From assembly GCA_022703505.1 (NCBI GenBank), contig JAKLDN010000001.1, positions 219,389 to 283,388 on the forward strand: a stretch of 64,000 nucleotides of DNA. Direction: 5' to 3'. This document shows, piece after piece, positions 2,491 through 59,435 of the stretch. The DNA is from Spirochaetota bacterium. Its GTDB lineage: Bacteria > Spirochaetota > Spirochaetia > Treponematales > UBA12059. Positions within the stretch are counted from its first letter, which is position 1, and every line of letters starts with the position of its first letter. A model generated the notes under the pieces. It was not told where the DNA came from. It worked only from the letters and a program-made list of their open reading frames with translations, and did not search any database. The translations under genes were made by a program, and so were the position numbers.

Positions 2491-3932
2491 GAAGCGTCTC
2501 CTTCGGGTTCGAGAAGGTAGATCACGCTGGGGCCCTCGACCCCCTTCAGGGCCGTCTTGAAGGGACCCCGGAACGAGAACCCCGGCGGCGTGCCGGCCGC
2601 GTCCCGGGCGTCCCGGGCCACCAGGATCTGTCCCGGCTTGGCCAGGCCGCAGAGCCGGGCGGCTATGTTGACCGAGGCTCCGATGACGGTGAAGTCCGCC
2701 CGGCGGGCCGAGCCGATCATGCCCTGGATCACCTCTCCGCAGGCGATGCCCGCCCCCAGGGCCAGGCCGTCGTAGGCTTCTCCGCCTTTCCGGGCCGCGG
2801 CCATGATGGCAAGGGCGGCGGAGCAGGCCCGGGCGGGGCTGTCCTCCCCCGAGAAGACCGCCACCACCTCGTCCCCCACGAACTTGTCCACGTCCCCCTG
2901 GTGCTCGTGGATGATCCGGGACTGCTCCTCCAGGAGCTTGTTGAGGATTCCGACCACCCGTTCCGGGTCGTGGGAACCCGTATAAGAGGTGAAGCCCCGG
3001 ACGTCCGTGAAGAGCAGGGTCTTCCGGACCCGCTTGGGCTCCTGGGAATCCTGGATCGCCCCGAGGGTGCCCGCGGAGACGTACTTGGTCAGTTCGGAGC
3101 GCTCCCGGAGTCCCCGGACCATGTCGTTCACCTGCCGTCCCAGCCGGGCGATCTCGTCGTTTCCCCGGACGCTGACGACTCCTCCGAAGTCCCCCTGGGC
3201 CACCCGTTCGCAGACCTTTCCGATGGCCGCGACGGGGGCGGCTACTCCCCGGTTCATGATGCTCCCCAGCGCCGCGGCCAGGATGATGGTCAGGACCAGG
3301 AAGCCCGCGCCGCCGGAGGCCAGGGCGAGATTTTCGGACCGGACGAAGGAACTGACGTCGAACTGGACCCCGATGACTCCGCGGATGGTGTGGTCGGAGC
3401 CGTGGCAGGCCGTACACCGGGGAAGGTTGATGAGGGGCCGGTAGATCTTGATGTAGACCGCCGCATCGTCCTCCTGGCGGAAGAACACGTCCTGGGGGGG
3501 CATGGACACCGCCTTGGGAAAGTGGACGCTGTCCGCGGGCATCTGCATCTCCAGGGCCGGGGACGATCGGGGGGCGAACTTTTCCCTGCGGATGTTCGCG
3601 TTGACCTCCTGGATGGTCCGGTTGTCGGAGAAGGCAATCTCCCCGTTCCGCCGGAACAGGGAGATCCGGACCTTGGGGTTGGCGCCCTCGATCTCCCGGA
3701 AGAACTGCACCGCGATCGGGGCCTCCCCGGGAAGCATGAAGTTCTCGATGGCGGTCTGGAGCATGGCCGCTTCCTGGTTCAGGCTCTCCCGGGTGACCTC
3801 CTGCCGGGAACTCGTGAGCACCAGGCCGAACATCAGGGCCGCTATCCCGAGGCCGACCGTCAGGGCAATCACGAGGATCCGGATGATCTTGGCCGCCAGG
3901 GTCGTCGTGCGGTGAGGGCGCATCGTTTCCAT
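2487..3932 (-). CDS. membrane adenylate/guanylate cyclase: heme-c (CTACH, DUF3365/Tll0287-like) periplasmic sensor, HAMP, class III cyclase domain
   Basis: This 481-aa ORF has two TM segments flanking a domain with a CTACH motif. A HAMP domain follows (APVAAIGKVCERVAQGDFGG), then a cyclase core (LLFTDVRGFTSY, FVGDEVVAVF, TVIGASVNIAARL). Confidence 0.85.
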   Translation of the reverse strand: METMRPHRTTTLAAKIIRILVIALTVGLGIAALMFGLVLTSSRQEVTRESLNQEAAMLQTAIENFMLPGEAPIAVQFFREIEGANPKVRISLFRRNGEIAFSDNRTIQEVNANIRREKFAPRSSPALEMQMPADSVHFPKAVSMPPQDVFFRQEDDAAVYIKIYRPLINLPRCTACHGSDHTIRGVIGVQFDVSSFVRSENLALASGGAGFLVLTIILAAALGSIMNRGVAAPVAAIGKVCERVAQGDFGGVVSVRGNDEIARLGRQVNDMVRGLRERSELTKYVSAGTLGAIQDSQEPKRVRKTLLFTDVRGFTSYTGSHDPERVVGILNKLLEEQSRIIHEHQGDVDKFVGDEVVAVFSGEDSPARACSAALAIMAAARKGGEAYDGLALGAGIACGEVIQGMIGSARRADFTVIGASVNIAARLCGLAKPGQILVARDARDAAGTPPGFSFRGPFKTALKGVEGPSVIYLLEPEGDAS

Positions 3933-4775: not shown

Positions 4776-4783
4776 ATGCCGAA

Positions 4784-4988
4784 GGCGCGGATTATCCGGG
4801 GCAGCCGGTCGCGCTGCCGCGCGACCGATCAACCGTGGCGCGCCGCAGGCGCGGATTATCCGGGGCAGCCGGTCGCGCTGCCGCGCGACCGATCAACCGT
4901 GGCGCGCCGCAGGCGCGGATTATCCGGGGCAGCCGGTCGCGCTGCCGCGCGACCGATCTACCGTGGCGCGCCGCAGGCGCGCCACGGT
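4784..4988. repeat. 64-bp tandem repeat, 3.1 copies, ending in a 12-bp-stem hairpin
   Basis: Units at 4784-4847 and 4848-4911 are identical. The unit at 4912-4975 differs by one base (A>T at 4959). Each unit contains the hairpin CGGTCGCGC-TGCC-GCGCGACCG. The terminal hairpin ACCGTGGCGCGC-CGCAG-GCGCGCCACGGT spans 4960-4988. Confidence 0.95.
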
Positions 4989-7102
4989 TAGAACTCCTCA
5001 AATTCCGAATCCTCCGCGTCCCGGGGCTGTTTCAGGGTGATGCCCGTGGCGGCTGATCGGCTTTGCCGATCAGCCGGCGCCGAAGCAAGCTTCGGCGATT
5101 GTCCGGATCCGCCTTCCGGAGACGGCGCGGAAGTCTTCGCGCCCTTTGCCGCGGTCCGGGACGGTTTGGTAGAAGGGCTTCCCTGGACCGCCGGCCTGCT
5201 TCCCGCGGGAGGGGCGAGCCTCCGGGGACCCGCCGATGGGCGGACGGAGGGCTCCGAGGACCGGGAGGTCCGAACCGCCGACGCGCCGTCCAGCTTGAAG
5301 AAGGACACGGTGTCCGCCATGAGCTCCGCCTGGGAGGCGAGCTCCTCGCTCGTCCCCGCGAGCTCCTCGCTGGCCGAGGCGTTCTGCTGGACCACCATGT
5401 CCATCTGGGTGATGCCCTTGGCGATCTGCTCCGCCCCGCTGGACTGCTCGTTGGAGGCGGCGCTGATCTCCAGGATCAGGTCCGCGGTCTTCTTGATGTC
5501 CGGGACCAGTTCCGCCAGGAGCTTTCCGGCCTCCTGGGCCACCGACACGGAATCCCGGGAAAGGCCGTTGATCTCCTGGGCGGCCTTCTGGCTCCGCTCC
5601 GCGAGCTTGCGGACCTCGCTGGCGACCACGGCGAAACCCTTTCCGGCGTCCCCGGCCCGGGCCGCCTCGATGGCGGCGTTCAAGGCCAGGAGGTTGGTCT
5701 GCCGGGCGATCTCCTCGATGATGGAGATCCGGGAGGCGATCTCCCCCATGCTGTCCGAGGTCTTGGCCACGGCCTTGCCGGAGTCCTCGGCGTTCCGCGC
5801 CACCCGCTGGGCCAGGGAGTCCGCCTGGGAGGTGTTCTCCGCGTTTTGCCGTATCGTGGAGGCAAGCTCCTCCACGGACGCCGAGAGCTCCTCCACGCTG
5901 GCGGCCTGCTCGGTGGCGCCCTGGGAAAGGCCCTGGGCCGTGCTGGAGAGCTCCTGGGAACCCGTGGAAACCTGGCCGGAGGCCTGGCGGATGTCCGTGG
6001 CGATCCGGACCAGGGCCTCGATCATGTCGTTGATGGCCACCGCGATGGCCCCGACCTCGTCCCCCCGCTCCAGGACCTTGCGGGAATAGTCCGAGACCAG
6101 GCGGGCCTTGCCGAGCTCGCCCTGGGCCACGTGCTCCACCGAGACGCGGACATGGTCCACGGGCTTGGCCACGCTGCGGGCCACAAGTACGGAGATCAGG
6201 ATGGACAGGACCAGGGCCACGACGACTGTCACGGCCAGGACCTGGATGAGCTCCGTGGCTGTCTGGCGGATCTCCCGGGTCTCCTGGGTCAGGGCCAAGG
6301 CCCAGCCCGGACTGCTCGGGACCTTCACGAAGAAGGTGGTCACGTCCCGCCCGTCCGGGGTGCTGTAGTGACCCAGGCCGGATTCCTCGGCCAGGAAGCG
6401 GCGCCCGAGCTCCGACAGCCCCTTGTACCCCTTGGCGTCCGTCTCCGAGAGCACGAGGCTCATGGCCACGTCCTTGTTGGGGTGGGCGATCACCAGGCCG
6501 TCCTTGTCCGCGATCCAGCCGTACCCGGTGTGCCCGGACTTCATGGACAGGGCGATCTGGGACAGCTTGCCCAGGTCGATCTGGATGCCTACCAGGCCTC
6601 GCCGTCCCCCCGCGGGATCCAGGACCTCGTGGGCCATCAGGACCACCGGGAGGTTCGTGGCACGGGAGATCACGGCCTTGGAGATGAAGAACCGCTGGGT
6701 TCCGACCACCACGGCCTGGAAATAGTCCCGGTCCTTGACGTTCACCCGGGTCCCCAGGGAGGTGACCGCCTCCCCGTCCAGACCCGCGTAGAAGATCATG
6801 TCGATATCCTCGGAGACCTGGGCCCTTAAGGCCTTCATGAGCTCCTCGATGCGGTCTAGGTCCGCGGTCCGGACCTGGTCCCGGAAGGCCACCATGCGGG
6901 CGGTGGCCTCCATCTTCTTGATGAATTCCGCCATCTGGTCGCCCCGGGCCCGGGTCATCTGCCCCTGGAGCTCCGTCGTGAGTTCCGTGACACGACCGTC
7001 CACCAGGAGGGCGGTTATGATTCCCGTGGCCGCGAAGGCCGCGGCGATGAACACGCTGAAGATGAAGGCGATGCGGAAGGATAGGGAGCGTTTGCGGGCC
7101 AT
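4988..7102 (-). CDS. methyl-accepting chemotaxis protein (Cache-type sensor, HAMP, MA domain) with long C-terminal tail ending EFEEF
   Basis: The MA domain has the highly conserved hairpin ([41 protein letters not shown]). The start is placed at ATG 7102, which has a GGAGG 7-8 nt upstream. Confidence 0.9.
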
Positions 7103-8533: not shown

Positions 8534-9304
8534 CTAGCTTCCTGGACGGCCGCGGAACCATGCCCGGGCGGCGATCCCGAAGGCCACCCCCAGGTTGAGG
8601 CTGGCCTTGGCTCCCCCCATGGGGATCGACACCCGGTATCGGCACCGGGCCAGGAGGTCCGGGGAAAGCCCGAGCTCCTCGGAACCCACGGCCAGGATCC
8701 CCCGTTCCGGGAAGGTAAAGCCATCCAGGGGCTCCCCGCCCAGCTCCAGGGCCACCAGGGGGCCCAGGCCGTCCAGGTCCGCGAGGGCCGCGCGGCGCCA
8801 GGGTACGGTCCGGGTGGTGCCCATGGCCGACCTCTCGGCCCGGGGATGGCCGGGATCGGCGCAGAAGGGGGACAGGAGGATCTCCGCCACCCCGAAGGCC
8901 TCGGCGCTCCGGAACACGGAACCCACGTTGAAGGGACTCCGCACGTCCTGGAGGTAGACCCGGAAGCCCGGCAGGACCCGGCGGGTCTCCGAGGAAAGCC
9001 CCGAGGCGTCCAGAAAGTCCCAGTCCGCGGCGTCCTTCCCGGTCAATCGGAGCATGTGGTGCCGGGCCTCGTTGCAGGCGCGCCGGGGGTCCTCCTCGAG
9101 CCGCAGGGCCAGGCGGCCCAGGTCCGAGCGTACCTCGGAGGGGACGGCCTCGTCCCGGGCAAGCAGATCTAAAAGGCCCCGGGCGTAGCGCCCGTCGATG
9201 TTCCCCCCGGCGCCCAGGGTCTCCTCCAGGGCCCGGAACTCCAGGGCGGCCTTCCGCAGCCGGTGGGAGGGGGTGAGGGTGGAGAGCTTGTGGAGGGGGA
9301 TCAT
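8534..9304 (-). CDS. SpoU/TrmH-family RNA 2'-O-methyltransferase
   Basis: SPOUT C-terminal motifs are present: ILAVGSEELGLSPDLL and IPMGGAKASLNLGVAFGIA. Confidence 0.8.
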   Translation of the reverse strand: MIPLHKLSTLTPSHRLRKAALEFRALEETLGAGGNIDGRYARGLLDLLARDEAVPSEVRSDLGRLALRLEEDPRRACNEARHHMLRLTGKDAADWDFLDASGLSSETRRVLPGFRVYLQDVRSPFNVGSVFRSAEAFGVAEILLSPFCADPGHPRAERSAMGTTRTVPWRRAALADLDGLGPLVALELGGEPLDGFTFPERGILAVGSEELGLSPDLLARCRYRVSIPMGGAKASLNLGVAFGIAARAWFRGRPGS

Positions 9305-9311
9305 GGGAGAA

Positions 9312-9445
9312 GGTGAACAGTGAATAGTGAATAGTGAATAGGTGACTCGATCGTCCTGGTTGATCTTCTCACCATAGCAAGAAGTCTTTCTCCATGCCTT
9401 AAATCAGTTCCACTATTCACCAATTTACCCATTCACCAATTCACG
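9312..9445. repeat. inverted GTGAAT hepta/octamer arrays (locus A)
   Basis: The left arm at 9312-9346 reads GGTGAACAGTGAATAGTGAATAGTGAATAGGTGAC. The right arm at 9408-9445 is its approximate reverse complement (CACTATTCACCAATTTACCCATTCACCAATTCACG). Confidence 0.85.
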
Positions 9446-9451
9446 TTCCCA

Positions 9452-10603
9452 TCAATACGCCGTCTTCATCATGTCGAACACGTCGTCGGTGGACACGGTG
9501 CGGGGCAGGTGGTTGGTCATGTCCAGGGTGCGGGCGTGCTCCGCGGTCTCCACCAGGCGCTCCAGTTCCAGGTCGAAGTCCTTGAGGCGGCTGGGGATCT
9601 TGAGGAGCCCCAATCGGGTGCGCACGGACTCCACGGCCTTGACCGCGGACTCGGCGGTGGTAAGTTCGGACACGTCCTCTCCCAGGAGGGGGGCCAGGGC
9701 GGCCACCTTCTCCAGCCGGCTCTTGGAGGCCCATTCCAGCATGTAGGGCAGGACCACCGCGGCCAGGCTGGCCTTGGGCACCTGGAACCGGGCGTTCAGG
9801 GCCAGGACCACCGCGGTCCCCAGGCCCAGGGAGCTGGAGGCCAGGCCGGCCCCGGTCAGGAAGGAGGCCCGGAGGGCGTCCGCCCGGACCGCCGGATCGT
9901 CCGGCCGGGTCTGGAAGGCGTCCACGCAGGAGGCGGCCAGGGCCACCGCCCGCTCCAGGAGCACGTCGGAGTAGAAGTTGGCCCGGGCGGACACGAAGCC
10001 CTCGATGGCCTGGAGCAGGACGTCCAGCATGCAGGCCGCCGCGGCCTTGGGGAAGAGCCCCGTGGACATCGAGGGGTCGAGGATCACGGCCCGGGTCGTC
10101 CCGGGAGAGGCGGCCAGGACCCGGGCCCGCCGGCCCCGGGCGTCCGTCAGGGCGCACTCGTCGGTGAGTAGGAAGGGATCCCGGTAGGTGGTGGGTACGG
10201 AGATGTACGGAAGCGGGCGGCAGGTCGGGGGAGTTCCGTCGATCCAGTCGTCCAGGGAGGCCGTCCCTGCGGCCGAGGCGGCCACCGCCCGGGCCGCGGA
10301 CAGGACTCGGACCCCGCCCAGGCCCACGACCCCGTTGGCCCGGGCCCCCCGGGCCAGGCGGAGGATGTCCTCCGCGGAGGCGGTGGTGGCGCCGTCCGGG
10401 ATTTCGTCGAACAGGATGGCCTTGGAGCCCCGATCCTCCAGGAGGGCCAGGACCCGGTCCACCGCCCGGGCCTCGTGGAGCATGGGATCCGCGACCACCA
10501 GGACGCGGTCCGAGCCGTAGGACGCAAGCAGGCTGGGAAGCTTGAGTAGGGTGTCCGGCCCCATGTAGGTTTCCGCGGGGACACGGAATCGGAAGTCTGC
10601 CAT
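9452..10603 (-). CDS. iron-containing (group III) alcohol dehydrogenase family protein
   Basis: This 383-aa ORF has the family layout: VLVVADP, GLGGVRVLSAARAV, and a C-terminal helical domain. Confidence 0.75.
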   Translation of the reverse strand: MADFRFRVPAETYMGPDTLLKLPSLLASYGSDRVLVVADPMLHEARAVDRVLALLEDRGSKAILFDEIPDGATTASAEDILRLARGARANGVVGLGGVRVLSAARAVAASAAGTASLDDWIDGTPPTCRPLPYISVPTTYRDPFLLTDECALTDARGRRARVLAASPGTTRAVILDPSMSTGLFPKAAAACMLDVLLQAIEGFVSARANFYSDVLLERAVALAASCVDAFQTRPDDPAVRADALRASFLTGAGLASSSLGLGTAVVLALNARFQVPKASLAAVVLPYMLEWASKSRLEKVAALAPLLGEDVSELTTAESAVKAVESVRTRLGLLKIPSRLKDFDLELERLVETAEHARTLDMTNHLPRTVSTDDVFDMMKTAY

Positions 10604-10632
10604 CTCGCTCGCCTCCGGAGGGGCATGTACGT

Positions 10633-10660
10633 AAAAAAGGCGGAAGACTCGCTTCCGCCT
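10633..10660 (-). terminator. rho-independent terminator downstream of flgM
   Basis: The minus strand reads GGCGGAAG-CGAGT-CTTCCGCC followed by TTTTTT. Confidence 0.8.
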
Positions 10661-10684
10661 GTGTTTCTCGCCGTGAACCGGACC

Positions 10685-10966
10685 TTACAGGAGCTGGTCG
10701 AGTATCCGGTCCGCCGTCGCGGCCAGGAGGGTCTCGTCCAGGTAGGCGGGGTCGTCGATCTTGGCCTTGAGCTCCGCGATCCGGTCCGCACGGACGTCCG
10801 GCGCGGCCTTGACCATCTCGATGACGCGGAAGAGTTCCGCCTTCTCCATCGCCTCGGAGGATACGGCGATGGAATCGCCCTTGGAGCCCTTGTCCGCCCG
10901 ATGGGGGCCGTCGGACTTCCGGGGGTTCTGTATCGGGTCGATAGGATGTAGTCGGTCGATCGTCAT
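10685..10966 (-). CDS. flgM: anti-sigma-28 factor FlgM
   Basis: The 93-aa ORF has a C-terminal FlgM signature: VRADRIAELKAKIDDPAYLDETLLAATADRIL. Confidence 0.8.
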   Translation of the reverse strand: MTIDRLHPIDPIQNPRKSDGPHRADKGSKGDSIAVSSEAMEKAELFRVIEMVKAAPDVRADRIAELKAKIDDPAYLDETLLAATADRILDQLL

Positions 10967-11019
10967 CGGGAAACCCCTGCCTTTCTCATCATGAGTATCG
11001 GCATCGATCCACGAATAGT

Positions 11020-11700
11020 TTATGCGTTTTTACCGCCGTATACAAGTACCGAGAACTCCCCCTGCACCTTTTCCCGGGATTCCAGGGCCGAACAGACCTC
11101 CCCGGGCGTCCCGGCCATGTACTCCTCGAAGGCCTTGGTCATCTCCCGGCCGGCGAAGACCCGGCACTCCGGATCCAGGTCGGCCAGGTCCAAAAGGAGT
11201 TTCAGGATCCGGTGGGGGGACTCGTAGACCACGAAGGCCTCCCCCCGGGCCAGGAGCTCCGCCAGCCGGGAGCGCCGTCGGCCCGGCTTCGGGGAGAGGA
11301 AGCCCTCGAAGAGGACGGATTTCACGGGAAGCCCCGAGGCGGACAGGAGGCAGGCGAAGGCCGAGGGCCCCGGTACGGGGACTACGTCGTGCCCCCCCTC
11401 CCGGGCCAGGGCGGCCGCCCGGGCCCCGGGATCGCTCAGGGCGGGAGTCCCCGCGTCGGAGCAGTAGGCCACGTCCTTGCCGGAGTCCAGGAGCCCCAGG
11501 ATCCTGCGGGCCCCCTTCTCCTCCTCGTAGGCGTAGCACGCGACCAGGGGCTTGCGTATCCCGAAATGGGTCAGGAGCTTCAGGGTGTGGCGGGTGTCCT
11601 CGCAGGCCACGGTATCCACGGACTTGAGGACCTCCAGGGCCCGGAGGGTGATGTCCTGGAGGTTACCGATGGGGGTGGCCACCATGTACAGCGTCGCCAT
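11020..11700 (-). CDS. rsmI: 16S rRNA (cytidine1402-2'-O)-methyltransferase RsmI
   Basis: The start MATLYMVATPIGNLQDITLRALEVL is the tetrapyrrole-methylase-fold RsmI N-terminus. The ATG at 11700 is chosen because the track ORF extension translates the repeat array. Confidence 0.9.
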   Translation of the reverse strand: MATLYMVATPIGNLQDITLRALEVLKSVDTVACEDTRHTLKLLTHFGIRKPLVACYAYEEEKGARRILGLLDSGKDVAYCSDAGTPALSDPGARAAALAREGGHDVVPVPGPSAFACLLSASGLPVKSVLFEGFLSPKPGRRRSRLAELLARGEAFVVYESPHRILKLLLDLADLDPECRVFAGREMTKAFEEYMAGTPGEVCSALESREKVQGEFSVLVYGGKNA

Positions 11701-11723
11701 GGGGGGAGTATAGCGGTTGGAAA

Positions 11724-11828
11724 GGTGAATAGTGAATAGTGAATAGGTGAATAGAGGGGCCACCCATTCACCCATTCACCCATTCACCCATTCACCCATT
11801 CACCCATTTACCTATTCACCTATTCACC
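11724..11828. repeat. inverted GTGAAT hepta/octamer arrays (locus B) between divergent genes
   Basis: The left arm at 11724-11754 has 4 units of GTGAATAG. The loop is AGGGGC. The right arm at 11761-11828 has 8 units of CCCATTCA / CCTATTCA, the reverse complement motif. Confidence 0.95.
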
Positions 11829-11849
11829 TTCCACGATATACTTCCCCCG

Positions 11850-12248
11850 ATGGACATCCTCCTGCGCGCCACCATCTACATCTCGGTCGCCGTCATCCTG
11901 CTGTGGATGTTCCTGGGCCTCTTCGGCCCGTACCGGCGGCGCCGGACCCTCCTCAAGGCGGGGGACAAGGCCGCGACGGAGGACCTGCCCCGGACCTGCC
12001 CCCTCTGCGGCGAGGTCCTGTCGCCGGGGCAGAGGGTCAAGACCCGGGTGAACCCGGGCCAAGGGGACAAGCTCATGCAGATCTTCGGCTGTCCCCACTG
12101 CTACCCCCCCAACATTGAATGCAAGCGGATCTGTCCGGTCTGCGAGAAGGAAGTCCCCCGGCAGGGCTACGTGATCGCCCGGCTCTTCGAGCATCCCGGC
12201 CGCAAGCACGTCCACGTCCTGGGGTGCTCGGGCTGCCGGAACACGTGA
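11850..12248 (+). CDS. small membrane-anchored Cys-rich (4x CxxC) zinc-ribbon protein, function unknown
   Basis: The 132-aa ORF has an N-terminal TM segment (IYISVAVILLWMFLGLF) followed by CPLC, CPHC, CPVC and CSGC. Confidence 0.6.
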   Translation: MDILLRATIYISVAVILLWMFLGLFGPYRRRRTLLKAGDKAATEDLPRTCPLCGEVLSPGQRVKTRVNPGQGDKLMQIFGCPHCYPPNIECKRICPVCEKEVPRQGYVIARLFEHPGRKHVHVLGCSGCRNT

Positions 12249-12276
12249 AATCCGGAAGACGGACGAAGGCGATACT

Positions 12277-13515
12277 ATGAAGGGCAAGCAAGTACAGAGA
12301 CTCCTCTTCCTGGCGGTGTTCCTCTTCCTGTTCCTGTTCGTGGCGCGGCTGTTCTCCCCCTTCTTCAGCATCCTGCTCTGGGCGGGACTCCTGTACGTCA
12401 TAACCTTTCCCTTCTACGACCGGGCGACCCGCTCGATCCCCGACAAGCCCCTGGGACGCTTCGCGCGCAAGCTGCTGGCGGGAGGCTTCGCCCTGGGCTC
12501 CGTCCTGGCCGCGGTCATCCCCCTGGTTTTTCTGGGCTCCACGTTGCTGGGCCAGGCCCGGGAGCTCGTCCACTCGATCGACGAGTTCCTGGAACGGAAT
12601 CCGGACTTCTTCCGGACCCTGGACACGGGCGGCCTGGCCATGCGCCTGCGGGACACCTCCGGAGGCCTCATAGACCTGACCGGGATGGACCTGATGTCGG
12701 AACTGTCCGCGGCGGTCACCCGCGGTGCGGAGACCTTCCTGACCGTCTCGGCGACCCTCCTCCGGGACACCGCGGGGTTCGTCGTCTCCCTGGCCTTCCT
12801 GACCTTCACCCTCTACTTCTTCTACGTGGACGGCAAGGATCTGATCCGTACCTTCGTGAACGCCGTGCCCATCGAGAACGCCTACACCGCCGCCTTCCTG
12901 CGAAGGTTCGGGGAGGTCGGTAAACACCTCTTCCGGGGCTACCTGCTCGTGGCCCTCTACCAGGGAACCGCGGCCTTCCTCATATTCCTGCTCTTCGGCG
13001 TGAAGGGCCCCCTGCCCCTGGGGTTCTTGACGGCCATAGCCTCCTTCGTGCCCATGGTGGGGACCACCCTGGTCTGGGGACCCGTCGGGGTCGCGCGCAT
13101 CGTATCCGGGGATCCGACGGCCGGATTCGCCATCCTGATCCTCTCCTTCATCCTGGTTTCCGGGGTGGACAACCTTCTACGGCCCCTCCTGCTCACGGAG
13201 CGCATCAAGATCCACCCCCTGCTGGTCTTCTTCTCCATCATGGGGGGCCTCCAGCTCTTCGGTCTGAACGGCCTCATCCTGGGGCCCATGATGCTGATGC
13301 TCTTCTTCACCGGGGTGGACCTCTTCGAGCAGGCCTACGGGACCCGGAAGTCCGGGCGCGGCGGAGGGGAATCCGACACCGCGGGGTCCCCGGCGGGGGT
13401 CGACGGGGATGCGGATGCCGGGACGGGCCCGGACGCCGGGGAGGGGGAAACCGAGGCGGCCCCCGAGCCTCCCGGAGTCAACGGTCCAGGGCCTCCAGGT
13501 ACGAGTCCGCGATAG
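12277..13515 (+). CDS. AI-2E family transporter (PerM/UPF0118)
   Basis: The 412-aa polytopic membrane protein has the typical family layout. Its C-terminal tail is Gly/Pro/Asp-rich. Confidence 0.8.
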   Translation: MKGKQVQRLLFLAVFLFLFLFVARLFSPFFSILLWAGLLYVITFPFYDRATRSIPDKPLGRFARKLLAGGFALGSVLAAVIPLVFLGSTLLGQARELVHSIDEFLERNPDFFRTLDTGGLAMRLRDTSGGLIDLTGMDLMSELSAAVTRGAETFLTVSATLLRDTAGFVVSLAFLTFTLYFFYVDGKDLIRTFVNAVPIENAYTAAFLRRFGEVGKHLFRGYLLVALYQGTAAFLIFLLFGVKGPLPLGFLTAIASFVPMVGTTLVWGPVGVARIVSGDPTAGFAILILSFILVSGVDNLLRPLLLTERIKIHPLLVFFSIMGGLQLFGLNGLILGPMMLMLFFTGVDLFEQAYGTRKSGRGGGESDTAGSPAGVDGDADAGTGPDAGEGETEAAPEPPGVNGPGPPGTSPR

Positions 13516-31337: not shown

Positions 31338-32417
31338 ATGGGCCTGGAATCCTGTTCCGTCGTCGTGAATCCCAGCCGGACGCCCCACCTGGTCCGGCGC
31401 CTCCTCGGGCTCCTGGAAAGGCACGGGGCCGGCCGGGTCGTCGTCACCCGGGACCGGGAACACTTCATCCGGGAGATCGAGGACTTCGCCGCGGGCCCCT
31501 TCCGGAACCTCATCGTCTGGGGCGGGGACGGATCGGCCCACGAGGCCCAGAACGCCCTGGTGAAGTCCGGCTGCTCCGGCAAGAACGTGGGGTTCCTCCG
31601 GGGAGGCTCCGGGAACGGGATCCAGGACTCCTACGAGGTGCCCTTCCCGATCGCCCGGCAGGTTGCCGCCTTCGCGGAGAGCGCGGTCATGGACTACCGC
31701 ATCGCCGTGGACCTCCTGGCCATCGACGACGGAAGCGGGGGCGCCCCCGTGTACGGCCAACTCTGCGGCCTGGGCTTCGACGTCCGGGTCCTGGAGCGCC
31801 GGGCGCGGCACCGGTCCCGGAAGACCGGGTCGGCCCGCCCGGGCCTGGCCAACTACGTCCGCTCGGGGCTCGGGCTCGTGGCCACGGAACCTCTCTCGGA
31901 CGGCCGGACCTACCGCCTGGACCTGGAGCGCGGCAAGTTCGCCCTGCGCGGCAAGCGCACCAACGCGGAGTTCCCCTTCGAGCGGCTTTCCCTGGACGCG
32001 GATCCCGTGATGATCGAGATGGGGACCCGGCCGTACTACGGGGGCCTGTTCAAGGTCTGCCCCGACGTGGTCTGCAACGACGGCTTCTTGGACCTCTACC
32101 TCTTCAATTTCCAGAACAAGCTGGACGTCCTGCGCAACGCGGTCTCCCTGTGGAACGGCTGGCACTCCCGGATCAATTCCCGCTTCGCCCGGAGATCCAA
32201 GCCCCTCATCGAGCGTTTCGAGATCAAGAGGGTATCCGTCTCCTCGTCGGAACCCTTCCTGTGGCACGTGGACGGGGAGGTACGGCTCTGCGAGCCCCGG
32301 AAGGACGGGCCGGCCCGGCTGGACATCGGCGTCCTCCCGGGGGCCTTGAGCTTCCTGGTGCCCGCGGGGTTCTGGCGCAAGTTCCACCCCTACGACGAAC
32401 GCCGCGATCCCTCCTGA
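31338..32417 (+). CDS. diacylglycerol-kinase catalytic-domain (YegS/LCB5-like) lipid kinase
   Basis: VVVNPSR, WGGDGSAHEA and GGSGNG are characteristic DAGK_cat motifs. Confidence 0.75.
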   Translation: MGLESCSVVVNPSRTPHLVRRLLGLLERHGAGRVVVTRDREHFIREIEDFAAGPFRNLIVWGGDGSAHEAQNALVKSGCSGKNVGFLRGGSGNGIQDSYEVPFPIARQVAAFAESAVMDYRIAVDLLAIDDGSGGAPVYGQLCGLGFDVRVLERRARHRSRKTGSARPGLANYVRSGLGLVATEPLSDGRTYRLDLERGKFALRGKRTNAEFPFERLSLDADPVMIEMGTRPYYGGLFKVCPDVVCNDGFLDLYLFNFQNKLDVLRNAVSLWNGWHSRINSRFARRSKPLIERFEIKRVSVSSSEPFLWHVDGEVRLCEPRKDGPARLDIGVLPGALSFLVPAGFWRKFHPYDERRDPS

Positions 32418-45856: not shown

Positions 45857-45988
45857 GTGAATTGGTGAATTGTGAATAGGTGAATGGGAATGAAAGGTTG
45901 AGGAGCGAAGCCATGTCCGGGCATGCCTTCTGCCTGTCCAACCCCATTCACCCATTTACATATTCACCTATTCACCTAAGTATTCACC
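45857..45988. repeat. inverted GTGAAT hepta/octamer arrays (locus C)
   Basis: The left arm at 45857-45895 reads GTGAATTGGTGAATTGTGAATAGGTGAATGGGAATGAAA. The right arm at 45943-45988 reads CCCATTCACCCATTTACATATTCACCTATTCACC..TATTCACC and overlaps the efp stop. Confidence 0.85.
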
Positions 45989-58386: not shown

Positions 58387-59310
58387 ATGCCTACGGTACG
58401 GGAATTCCTGGAAAAAATCAAGTTCGACGGCCCGGTGAGCTACGGCGAGCCCATGTCGGGGCGCACGACCTTCCGGATCGGGGGCCCCGCGGACGCCCTC
58501 GCCGAGCCCCGGACCCGGGAATCCCTGGCCGCCCTGCTCTCCGCCGCCCGCTCGGAGGGCCTGCCCGTCTTCCTCCTGGGGGGCGGGGCCAACCTCCTGG
58601 TTCGGGACGGAGGGATCCGGGGCCTCGTGGTCTCGACCCGGGGGCTGGCGGGGCTTCGGATCACGGAGGCGGGGATCGAGGCGGAGGCCGGGGTGCCCGT
58701 CACGGACCTCGTAGGCGCGGCCGCGGAGGCGGGCCTGTCGGGCCTGGAGTTCGCGGCGGGCCTGCCGGGTTCCGTGGGAGGGGCCGTCTACATGAACGCC
58801 CGGTGCTACGAGCGGGAGTTCGCGGACCTCATGACCCGGGTGGACTACCTGGACTCTCGGGGGAATTTAGGCTCCCTGGTCCCGGCCAAGGGCGAATGGG
58901 CCTACAAGAGCACCCCCTTCATGCCGGGCGGGCTCCAGTCCGGCTCCGTGGTCCTGGGCGCGGAATTCCGCCTGAGACCCGGGGAAAAACCCGCCATCCT
59001 CTCCCGGATGCGGGAACTGGAGGCGGACCGGGCCGCCAAGGGGCACTTCGACTTCCCCTGCGCAGGCAGCGTCTTCAAGAACGACCGCCGCTTCGGCCGG
59101 CCCACGGGCAGGATCCTGGACGAGCTGGGCTTCCGGGGCCGCGCCTTGGGCACCGCGGCGGTCTCGGAAAAGCACGCCAACATCTTCGTGAATCCCGGCT
59201 CCGCCACCGCCGCGGACATGCTCGCCCTTATTGAGCAGGCCCGCCGGGAAGCCCGGGAGCGGTACGGTTACGAGCTGGAGACGGAGGTGGTCATAGTCGG
59301 TGAACCGTGA
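58387..59310 (+). CDS. murB: UDP-N-acetylenolpyruvoylglucosamine reductase
   Basis: The FAD-binding PCMH domain has TFRIGGPA and LGGGANLL. The C-terminal part has AGSVFKN. Confidence 0.9.
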   Translation: MPTVREFLEKIKFDGPVSYGEPMSGRTTFRIGGPADALAEPRTRESLAALLSAARSEGLPVFLLGGGANLLVRDGGIRGLVVSTRGLAGLRITEAGIEAEAGVPVTDLVGAAAEAGLSGLEFAAGLPGSVGGAVYMNARCYEREFADLMTRVDYLDSRGNLGSLVPAKGEWAYKSTPFMPGGLQSGSVVLGAEFRLRPGEKPAILSRMRELEADRAAKGHFDFPCAGSVFKNDRRFGRPTGRILDELGFRGRALGTAAVSEKHANIFVNPGSATAADMLALIEQARREARERYGYELETEVVIVGEP

Positions 59311-59435
59311 ACGGTGAACATAGGACAGTGGACGGGAAGGTGCGACCGTAACCCGCCGCATTCCGCGCCGATGCGTGGAACTCGGCCGCGTTCGTGTGCC
59401 GCTTCCGTCCACTGACCACCGTCCACCGTTTACAG
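59299..59435. repeat. inverted GTGAAC/GTGGAC heptamer arrays (locus D)
   Basis: The left arm at 59299-59336 reads GGTGAACCGTGAACGGTGAACATAGGACAGTGGACGG and overlaps the murB stop. The right arm at 59405-59435 reads CCGTCCACTGACCACCGTCCACCGTTTACAG. Confidence 0.8.

Follow-up and report, generated by a model that had tools for sequence, protein, structure and literature searches.

Dispersed repeats with units of 7-8 nt have, to our knowledge, been on record since 1990 without a function. A pair of such arrays, inverted relative to each other, lies between the divergent genes rsmI and a gene for a small cysteine-rich (Cys-rich) membrane protein in a 64,000-nt stretch of the genome of a Spirochaetota bacterium (assembly GCA_022703505.1, contig JAKLDN010000001.1, positions 219,389 to 283,388; this whole stretch is hereafter the window). 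A first interpretation made from the letters alone (the sequence-only reading) took this locus, numbered 2 of four below, for a symmetric bidirectional promoter module of two leaderless genes. Leaderless promoters in which the -10 box lies about 7 nt before the AUG are common in Actinobacteria and Deinococcus-Thermus. Those considered here show no difference from that kind (TANNNT 6-7 nt before the ATG, no Shine-Dalgarno (SD) sequence and recurrence at several genes of the window), although the kind is not well documented for Spirochaetia. With a probability of roughly 0.6, we consider the locus to be a composite, in which ancestral leaderless divergent promoters have been joined by a recent, unstable pair of inverted arrays that is prone to slippage, capable of forming a hairpin and incidental to the promoters.

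Comparable repeats have been described from Xanthomonas, where (GGGAATC)n forms about 186 arrays per genome, 89-93% of them intergenic and about 70 occurring as convergent pairs, with extensive variation between species and no known function (Rehm et al., 2015, PMC4692102). Related repeats include (GGGANTN)n in Xanthomonas and GGGGA(C/T)T in Nostoc. Upstream of a gene, the Xanthomonas arrays lie 0-50 bp from the start and their purine-rich strand is the non-coding one; downstream of a gene, the purine-rich strand is the coding one and the stop codon is often overlapped. A position between divergent promoters is under-represented, and formation of G-quadruplexes (G4) by these repeats has been shown in vitro (PMC4692102). 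In marine Beggiatoaceae, TAACTGA heptamers are found directly upstream of starts that have no SD. Nearly all of these sets consist of direct repeats that share one orientation, with one indirect repeat among 169 sets, and they are thought to belong to the 5' untranslated region (MacGregor, 2015, PMC4679880). The phase-variable promoter repeats of Moraxella uspA1 and uspA2 (poly-G and AGAT) are summarised in the same paper. Lastly, the intervening sequence (IVS) in the 23S rRNA of Coxiella has terminal inverted repeats cut by RNase III, and upstream of its S23p gene it has GACAGAT heptamers that vary between strains (Warrier et al., 2016, PMC4990558); the corresponding family, PF05635, resembles Avd, a protein of diversity-generating retroelements (PMC10053308).

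By their sequence and placement, the arrays of the window fit the class of dispersed heptamer and octamer repeats (long simple sequence repeats, short tandemly repeated repetitive sequences and the Xanthomonas GGGAATC type), a class that is known but unexplained. Its members are built from units of 5-11 nt (mostly 7) that follow one another head to tail at least 2-4 times; at locus 2, Tandem Repeats Finder (TRF) returns 7 nt x 4.1 and 8 nt x 8.5. Four dispersed loci lie within the 64 kb, all four are nearby convergent pairs, all four are placed in intergenic sequence near the ends of open reading frames (ORFs) according to the purine-strand rule, and length and sequence both vary between close relatives. 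Tandem units of the 7-nt class with a GAAT-type core, multiple dispersed copies, position and strand rules at starts and stops, convergent pairing and variation among close relatives are therefore held in common with the Xanthomonas and Nostoc repeats. In contrast, the unit here is GTGAATA(G), of 7-8 nt, the host is a metagenome-assembled genome (MAG) of Spirochaetia, one arm in eight carries a G4 motif and locus 2 lies between divergent promoters.

With the TAACTGA repeats, the arrays share short direct units a few nucleotides upstream of SD-less starts, associated genes of mutually unrelated function and a patchy phylogenetic distribution. However, the arrays here are inverted pairs, and at locus 2 they would lie upstream of the transcription starts. 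Similarly, both locus 2 and the Moraxella uspA1 and uspA2 promoters have a simple repeat beside a promoter with a copy number that is polymorphic in populations, but the variable part here is upstream of the -35 position and changes neither the -35/-10 spacing nor a reading frame, and the genes are housekeeping genes or of unknown function and not surface antigens.

The divergent rsmI locus and its promoters

The features of locus 2 are as follows.

11020..11700, minus strand: rsmI, 16S rRNA (cytidine1402-2'-O)-methyltransferase, 226 aa, ATG at 11700 (Pfam TP_methylase, E = 1e-32; named RsmI in the source annotation)
11707..11712, minus strand: -10 box TATACT of the predicted rsmI promoter, 6 nt before the ATG (promoter scan)
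11725..11754, plus strand: left array, GTGAATA, GTGAATA, GTGAATAG, GTGAATAG (TRF period 7, 4.1 copies)
11731..11736, minus strand: -35-like TTCACT, part of an array unit and 18 nt from the rsmI -10 box (promoter scan), in place of the ancestral TTCCCA/TTCTCA/TTTCCA at 17 nt
11755..11763, no strand: centre AGGGGCCAC, which no longer has the ancestral central motif GAACCG..GTACTTAC
11764..11827, plus strand: right array of 8 octamers, five CCATTCAC, then one CCATTTAC, then two CTATTCAC (TRF period 8, 8.5 copies, 95% matches)
11815..11820, plus strand: -35-like TTCACC, part of an array unit and 16 nt from the Cys-side -10 box in the window allele (promoter scan)
11837..11842, plus strand: -10 box TATACT of the predicted promoter of the Cys-rich gene, 7 nt before the ATG (promoter scan)
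11850..12248, plus strand: gene for the Cys-rich small membrane protein, 132 aa, ATG at 11850

The gap between the two genes is 149 bp. The start codon of rsmI is conserved in all orthologues; the 132-aa Cys-rich protein belongs to no Pfam family, and its homologues are confined to Spirochaetota. Two of the four units of the left array have 7 nt and two have 8 nt, the centre measures 8-9 nt by choice of phase, and the units of the right array, which is the length-variable part of the locus (3-11 units among assemblies), follow the pattern C[CT]ATT[CT]AC. The sequence-only reading had counted the 4 and 8 units correctly, but the 6-nt centre and the purely octameric layout that it described have to be given up. 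The two-unit pattern occurs 17 times in the window, far above the 0.23 that shuffles predict, and the GC content over the arrays is 0.51-0.57, down from about 0.7.

The promoter strings quoted in that reading are exact, with TATACT 6-7 nt before each ATG and no SD before either rsmI or the Cys-rich gene. A promoter scan of positions 9200-12300 returned exactly two sites (0.2 in shuffles), of which TTCACT-18-TATACT lies on the minus and TTCACC-16-TATACT on the plus strand, and so also found both of the TTCAC(C/T) motifs that had been placed at -35 distance, 16-18 nt. The two starts, TATACT-N6-ATG and TATACT-N7-ATG, have the form of sigma-70-type leaderless promoters, that is TANNNT 6-8 nt before the ATG and no SD.

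Relatives were recovered by homologue look-ups (identity of the Cys-rich protein 93, 82, 81 and 76%), exact-protein look-ups found the locus in many independent assemblies, and the gene order around the rsmI/Cys-rich pair is conserved in the relatives. Both TATACT boxes, their spacing and the ATGs are kept at every orthologous locus, down to 76% protein identity (conservation of box and spacing in L130, L131, L132, L135, L136 and L233-236). On the rsmI side the box lies at 6-7 nt (L130, L131, L132, L136 and L233-236), and on the Cys side at 7-10 nt from the conserved ATG in all orthologues. In the 76-82% relatives the gap is 81-93 bp and contains no arrays. There the same scan gives TTCCCA, TTCTCA or TTTCCA at 17 nt as the -35-like hexamer of the rsmI side and CTTACA at 18 nt as that of the Cys side. 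These hexamers score 9/12, equal to those supplied by the arrays in the window.

Because the relatives keep the boxes, the spacing and the starts without arrays, and have equally scoring -35 hexamers, the divergent leaderless promoters are, on comparative grounds, ancestral, and the arrays are later arrivals that replaced the old -35 region rather than created promoters. A central motif, GAACCG..GTACTTAC(A)C, is found between the promoters in L130 (2940-2975) and L131 (2945-2972) and in the centres of L235 and L136. It contains both back-to-back -35-like hexamers, may in addition be a regulator site and has disappeared from the window. The claim of two leaderless genes is thus borne out, as a prediction, by the persistence of TATACT and of a 6-10-nt distance to the ATG at all orthologous loci, and in this comparative sense the leaderless divergent promoters are real, and ordinary. 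The claim that the arrays themselves make up the bidirectional promoter is not supported, since the relatives have the same promoters without them.

TANNNT followed after 6-7 nt by ATG occurs at only 10 sites in the window (both strands), seven of which are the exact starts of long genes with high GC at third codon positions; four of these seven starts have no arrays. Leaderless starts seem to be common in this spirochaete. Five more genes of the window start 6-7 nt after a TANNNT box (3932, 15108, 31338, 58387 and 59472), as in GATATACT-CCCCGCC-ATG at 31338.

Unit number at locus 2 and the other copies

Alleles of locus 2 were compared between identical flanks in near-identical assemblies; their lengths are derived from assemblies and not from raw reads.

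Window and four assemblies: gap 149 bp, left 4 units, right 8 units
L002: gap 172 bp, left 4 units, right 11 units
L234: gap 147 bp, left 5 units, right 7 units
L233: gap 125 bp, left 5 units, right 4 units
L236: gap 108 bp, left 4 units, right 3 units
L235 and L136: gaps 146 and 154 bp, ancestral centre kept, with 1-2 left units and 5-6 GTCCAC-type heptamers flanking the centre

At least six allele types are therefore present, with right arms of 3, 4, 7, 8 and 11 octamers in addition to the centre-retaining type, and the centre-retaining alleles look like an intermediate state. The comparison of unit counts between strains, which the sequence-only reading had put forward as a check, gave the anticipated result in that the right arm differs, from 3 to 11 units, between identical flanks. 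Instability of the array is upheld to that extent; the variable promoter strength derived from it is not, as the variable units lie inside the array, distal (upstream) to the -35 position, and unit number therefore leaves the -35/-10 spacing unaltered. Among alleles with the same type of junction, the proximal spacing does not change. On the rsmI side, TTCAC(T/C) is constant at 18 nt from the -10 box in every ATTCAC-type allele. On the Cys side, TTCACC lies at 16 nt in the window and L233 and at 15 nt in L002, L234 and L236, and is absent from L235 and L136.

Contingency loci have their repeat between -35 and -10 or within an ORF, where it alters spacing or frame, and this is not the case here. 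Unit-number polymorphism in populations, which is also expected of such loci, is present among the assembly-derived alleles. The other three loci have short and heterogeneous arrays, which do not vary among 3 assemblies at locus 1, 10 at locus 3 and 6 at locus 4. Invariance of short heterogeneous arrays, together with the greatest variability in the long homogeneous right arm of locus 2, is the pattern predicted by slippage, and we infer slipped-strand mispairing as the mechanism by which units are gained and lost.

The window holds four inverted array pairs, including locus 2. The other three are as follows.

9313..9444, no strand: locus 1, (GTGAAYA)5, a 67-nt spacer and (ATTCACCN)4, between the stop of an iron-containing alcohol dehydrogenase (Fe-ADH) gene (9452) and the ATG of a SpoU-methylase gene (9304), both genes on the minus strand
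45857..45987, no strand: locus 3, an inverted pair between the stop of the elongation factor P (EF-P) gene (45976, within the array) and the ATG of an MTS-methyltransferase gene (45832)
59300..59433, no strand: locus 4, units of the GTGAAC/GTCCAC type, from the murB stop, which lies inside the left arm, to upstream of the promoter of a Na/H-exchanger gene (ATG 59472)

At all four loci the start-side arms lie 8-41 nt from the ATGs and read ATTCACC-like in the sense direction of the gene. The stop-side arms read GGTGAAT-like; these GTGAAT-type arms overlap a stop codon twice, those of the EF-P gene and murB, and once lie 7 nt beyond a stop, that of the ADH gene. The starts next to the arms of loci 1 and 3 lack a -10 box. 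The spacers of the four copies measure 9-87 nt and contain no ORF. One further repeat of the window, at 4778-4981, consists of an intergenic 64-bp unit in 3.2 copies with 98% identity (TRF score 394) and is unrelated to the octamer arrays.

The evidence on the origin of the arrays is mixed, being insertion-like at locus 1 and in favour of growth in place at locus 4. In the relatives L130-L132, locus 1 is absent and the ADH and SpoU genes overlap (TATTGATC, with a TGA stop and a TTG start). The window has 147 extra bp at 9305-9451 with TGAT on both sides (a possible 4-5-bp duplication, TTGAT/ATGAT), and the SpoU start is now an ATG without SD and without -10 box. All relatives have a gap of 143-167 bp at locus 4, the promoter TTGCGT-17-TAGCAT-6-ATG is conserved throughout and a 77% relative has vestigial units only, which suggests that the arrays developed in place while the length of the gap remained constant. 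Inverted arrays are also present at locus 3 in the 78% relatives, but there the heptamer is a different one, GTGAACG/CGTCCAC, so that species differ in the unit used at one and the same orthologous site.

In the composite reading, the older layer would consist of back-to-back sigma-70-type promoters with TATACT 6-7 nt upstream of the ATGs, from which transcription would begin at or next to the start codon to give leaderless mRNAs for rsmI and the Cys-rich membrane protein. In a recent and lineage-specific second layer, a convergent pair, (GTGAATA/G)n ... (CNATTCAC)n, would have accumulated between the -10 boxes and overwritten the old shared -35 and central region. Its units would be gained and lost by slipped-strand mispairing, most of all in the long homogeneous right arm, and the pair could adopt a hairpin or cruciform. 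The promoter-proximal unit would supply TTCAC(C/T) by chance, no better than the hexamer that it displaced, and the arrays would set the promoters 25-90 bp farther apart and produce an AT-rich island. The promoters would not need the arrays, whose effect on them we judge to be incidental and probably neutral. The locus is a natural test bed in which 0 (in the relatives), 3, 4, 7, 8 or 11 units stand between two simple conserved leaderless promoters. Because this series occurs in near-identical strains, the effects of an array on transcription and DNA structure should be directly measurable. The locus also counsels caution in annotation, as what looks like a strikingly symmetric "module" can turn out to be an ancestral pair of promoters that repeat DNA has overrun.

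Several points weigh against this reading. The constancy of the rsmI-side TTCAC(T/C) at 18 nt is also compatible with selection for a -35. The allele lengths are those of assemblies built from short reads, and in several of these a contig ends within the array. The transcription starts are placed at or next to the ATGs from the promoter sequences. Locus 1 looks like a discrete insertion, which fits mobility better than growth in place. Further, a unit that is common to several loci and changes in concert between species is more than local slippage alone would provide, and such concerted change hints at a trans-acting factor or at copying between loci.

In the model that follows from the sequence-only reading, the arrays are a selected bidirectional promoter module, that is a phased series of -35-like or regulator-binding sites whose unit number tunes both genes. 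The two array-assisted promoters are the sole promoter-like matches in a stretch of 3 kb, the rsmI-side spacing is constant in all ATTCAC-type alleles, an arm adjoins a gene start at all four loci, and the genome-shared unit and its concerted change between species could mean co-evolution with a DNA-binding protein. Nevertheless, we regard such a module as unlikely. The promoters persist in array-free relatives with equally good -35 hexamers, and unit number does not affect the -35/-10 spacing. The Cys-side spacing falls to 15 nt in three alleles, and two allele types have no TTCAC there. A period of 7-8 bp would put successive sites on different faces of the helix, and scrambled octamers form arrays about as often (see below), so that the unit is no conserved recognition sequence. 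Lastly, arms adjoin starts without a -10 box at two of the four array loci, four of the seven leaderless starts are free of arrays, and the arrays, as members of a dispersed repeat class, adjoin or overlap stop codons as often as they adjoin starts.

PF05635 genes bracketed by inverted arrays

Some inverted arrays in other genomes enclose a gene of the PF05635 family (23S rRNA IVS or Avd-like). In L129 (5986-6718), GTGAGT-type arrays stand on either side of a 425-nt spacer, in which a PF05635 protein is encoded (E = 2e-39). PF05635 genes are similarly arranged in L049 (40-564) and L023 (4330-4760), in the latter with inverted arrays of another unit. Of eight PF05635 genes sampled on plasmids, five stand between inverted short-unit arrays, and next to a sixth there is an array on one side only; these records come from cyanobacteria, Bacteroidota and Alphaproteobacteria, and the purine-rich arm is always upstream. 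The 7-8-nt unit is a different one each time in L129, L049, L023, L163, L165, L167, L169 and L170 (GTGAGTCG, GTGAATGG, AGAACAA, GGGAAAA, GGCAGAA, GGGGAGA, AAGGTTY and GGACRGA). No description of PF05635 genes bracketed by inverted arrays as a general pattern was found in the literature searched. In a Pseudanabaena plasmid (L166, NZ_CP112875.1, 46268-46627), a PF05635 gene with long arrays, (AAAGCTA)15 / (AAAGCCA)n, lies between cas6 and cas4 in a CRISPR-Cas locus.

Like the 23S rRNA IVS with an S23p/PF05635 ORF in Coxiella and Leptospira (Warrier et al., 2016, PMC4990558), locus 2 has terminal inverted repeats for a long stem, according to its predicted fold, and tandem heptamers that vary in number between strains. 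However, there is no ORF between the arms here, and the element, known here from sequence alone, lies outside rRNA. The arrays might accordingly be the arms of a gene-less derivative of a mobile, IVS-like PF05635 cassette that spreads by insertion and whose stem, where transcribed, RNase III could process. Such an origin would suit the PF05635 genes between or beside GTGAAT- or GTGAGT-type arrays in L129 and L049, the other-unit arrays around those of L023 and of five of the eight plasmid records, the RNase III-cut inverted repeats and variable GACAGAT heptamers of the Coxiella IVS (PMC4990558) and the 147-bp gain, with its possible 4-5-bp duplication, between formerly overlapping genes at locus 1. 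Yet we hold it to be improbable for the window. A phmmer search found no PF05635 gene in the window or in the examined contigs of this species, and the spacers of the four copies are unrelated. The in-place build-up at locus 4 and the intermediate allele of locus 2, in which arrays flank the ancestral centre, do not resemble single insertions, and the arrays of locus 2, upstream of the presumed transcription starts, would go untranscribed.

Other forms of mobility were considered. A miniature inverted-repeat transposable element with a conserved core was rejected, as the spacers of loci 1, 3 and 4 are unrelated (40% column identity). The possible TGAT target-site duplication is confined to locus 1, loci 2 and 4 show growth in place, and no consistent terminal sequence or duplication was seen at loci 2, 3 and 4.

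A broader proposal is that the arrays here and the heptamers of cyanobacteria and Xanthomonas are arms or footprints of one class of selfish cassette found across phyla, the complete form of which carries a PF05635 gene between a purine-rich array and its complement. We put this forward as a speculation of low probability. If it were true, the 23S rRNA intervening sequences would be a special case that had landed in rRNA, and the Avd-like protein, or an enzyme acting with it, would take part in the synthesis, copying or homogenisation of the arrays, which would explain both the use of one unit per genome and its concerted change between species. Should a systematic survey confirm the bracketing of PF05635 genes in several phyla, heptamer repeats, rRNA intervening sequences and stand-alone Avd-like proteins, all three of them poorly understood, would be tied together.

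Predicted structure and distribution across phyla

The potential of locus 2 to form a hairpin or cruciform, which had also been proposed, is supported by prediction: the fold computed for a single strand has -23.4 kcal/mol, whereas shuffles reach -9.3 +/- 2.2 (z = -6.3). The minus strand of its right arm has six GGG tracts with 5-nt loops, a canonical G4 motif, and at least four G3 tracts occur in this one of the eight arms of the window, the other seven having 0-3. That a non-B DNA or RNA structure (G-quadruplex or i-motif, cruciform or intercistronic RNA hairpin) sets transcription, termination or mRNA stability is nonetheless very unlikely in spite of this fold, this motif and the in vitro G4 formation of the related Xanthomonas repeats (PMC4692102), given that G4 potential is limited to one arm and short alleles of that same arm have only 1-2 tracts, that RNA fold energies favour the sense strand inconsistently, that the arrays show no T-run terminator and no Rfam match, and that unequal arm lengths and A-C mismatches disfavour cruciform extrusion.

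Three structural ideas were discarded. An RNA-level function based on the asymmetry of G-U and A-C pairs found no consistent preference in sense and antisense fold energies. Growth of the arrays around an older palindrome does not agree with the central regions of the relatives and the L136 element, which fold like shuffles (z about 0). A hairpin that brings stop and start together fits locus 1 only, where they lie 7 and 8 nt from the base of the stem; the distance is 24 nt at locus 3 and 38 nt at locus 4.

A scan of one genome per species for loci with at least three GTGAATNG units returned at least 120 loci in many phyla. Close pairs across phyla had GTGAAT followed by ATTCAC in 25 cases and the reverse order in 0. 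In a viral collection, scrambled octamers gave 2, 13 and 35 loci compared with 12 for the real unit. Since scrambled octamers form arrays about as often, GTGAATNG was rejected as a conserved cross-phylum motif; the sequence of the unit is therefore not special, and it is the layout that recurs. An unrelated (scrambled) viral unit has the same polarity, 57:3, and another scrambled unit, found at one viral locus type, has the opposite order, 0:11. Polarity is hence a strong tendency (25:0 and 57:3) and no universal rule. A crude ORF-based count of the orientation of single arrays relative to genes at the cross-phylum loci gave no clear direction. A literature search for the exact octamers returned primer-type matches only, and a scan of the whole window against Rfam at gathering thresholds returned no match. 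Resemblances to the DnaA box, the NarL heptamer, the parS half-site and SD or anti-SD sequences were considered and set aside, as the unit changes between strains and species and none of them matches consistently.

Several array elements outside the window came to light along the way. A viral element, surfaced by accident through a 'scrambled' control, consists of (AGTTGAAG)3-5, a conserved 39-nt core GAGGTCGCTTTTAAGAGTTGGRCAAGCAGAGGTNACTTC in either orientation and (CTTCAACT)3-5. It occurs in many copies per contig, for example in L198 at 3627-3725, 5456-5554 and 6894-6992, and also in L199, L200 and L202 (IMG/VR sample 3300045988). The viral contigs L186-L197 carry (ATCCTA)3, about 291 nt and (TAGGAT)3, a pair conserved in 11 related contigs and of opposite polarity, with the pyrimidine-rich arm first. 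In a Thermodesulfovibrionales MAG (L022, 6376-6643), inverted octamer arrays are nested, with GTGAATTG outermost, GGCTGAAG next and TTGGGAAA/ATCTCCC in the centre. In L023 (3980-4130), arrays of (AAGTTCA)n and of (CCATTCAC)n fall within what is predicted to be the 5' end of a CbiN/PDGLE-like ORF, so that either this ORF has been called too long or translation of the arrays yields a repetitive N-terminus.

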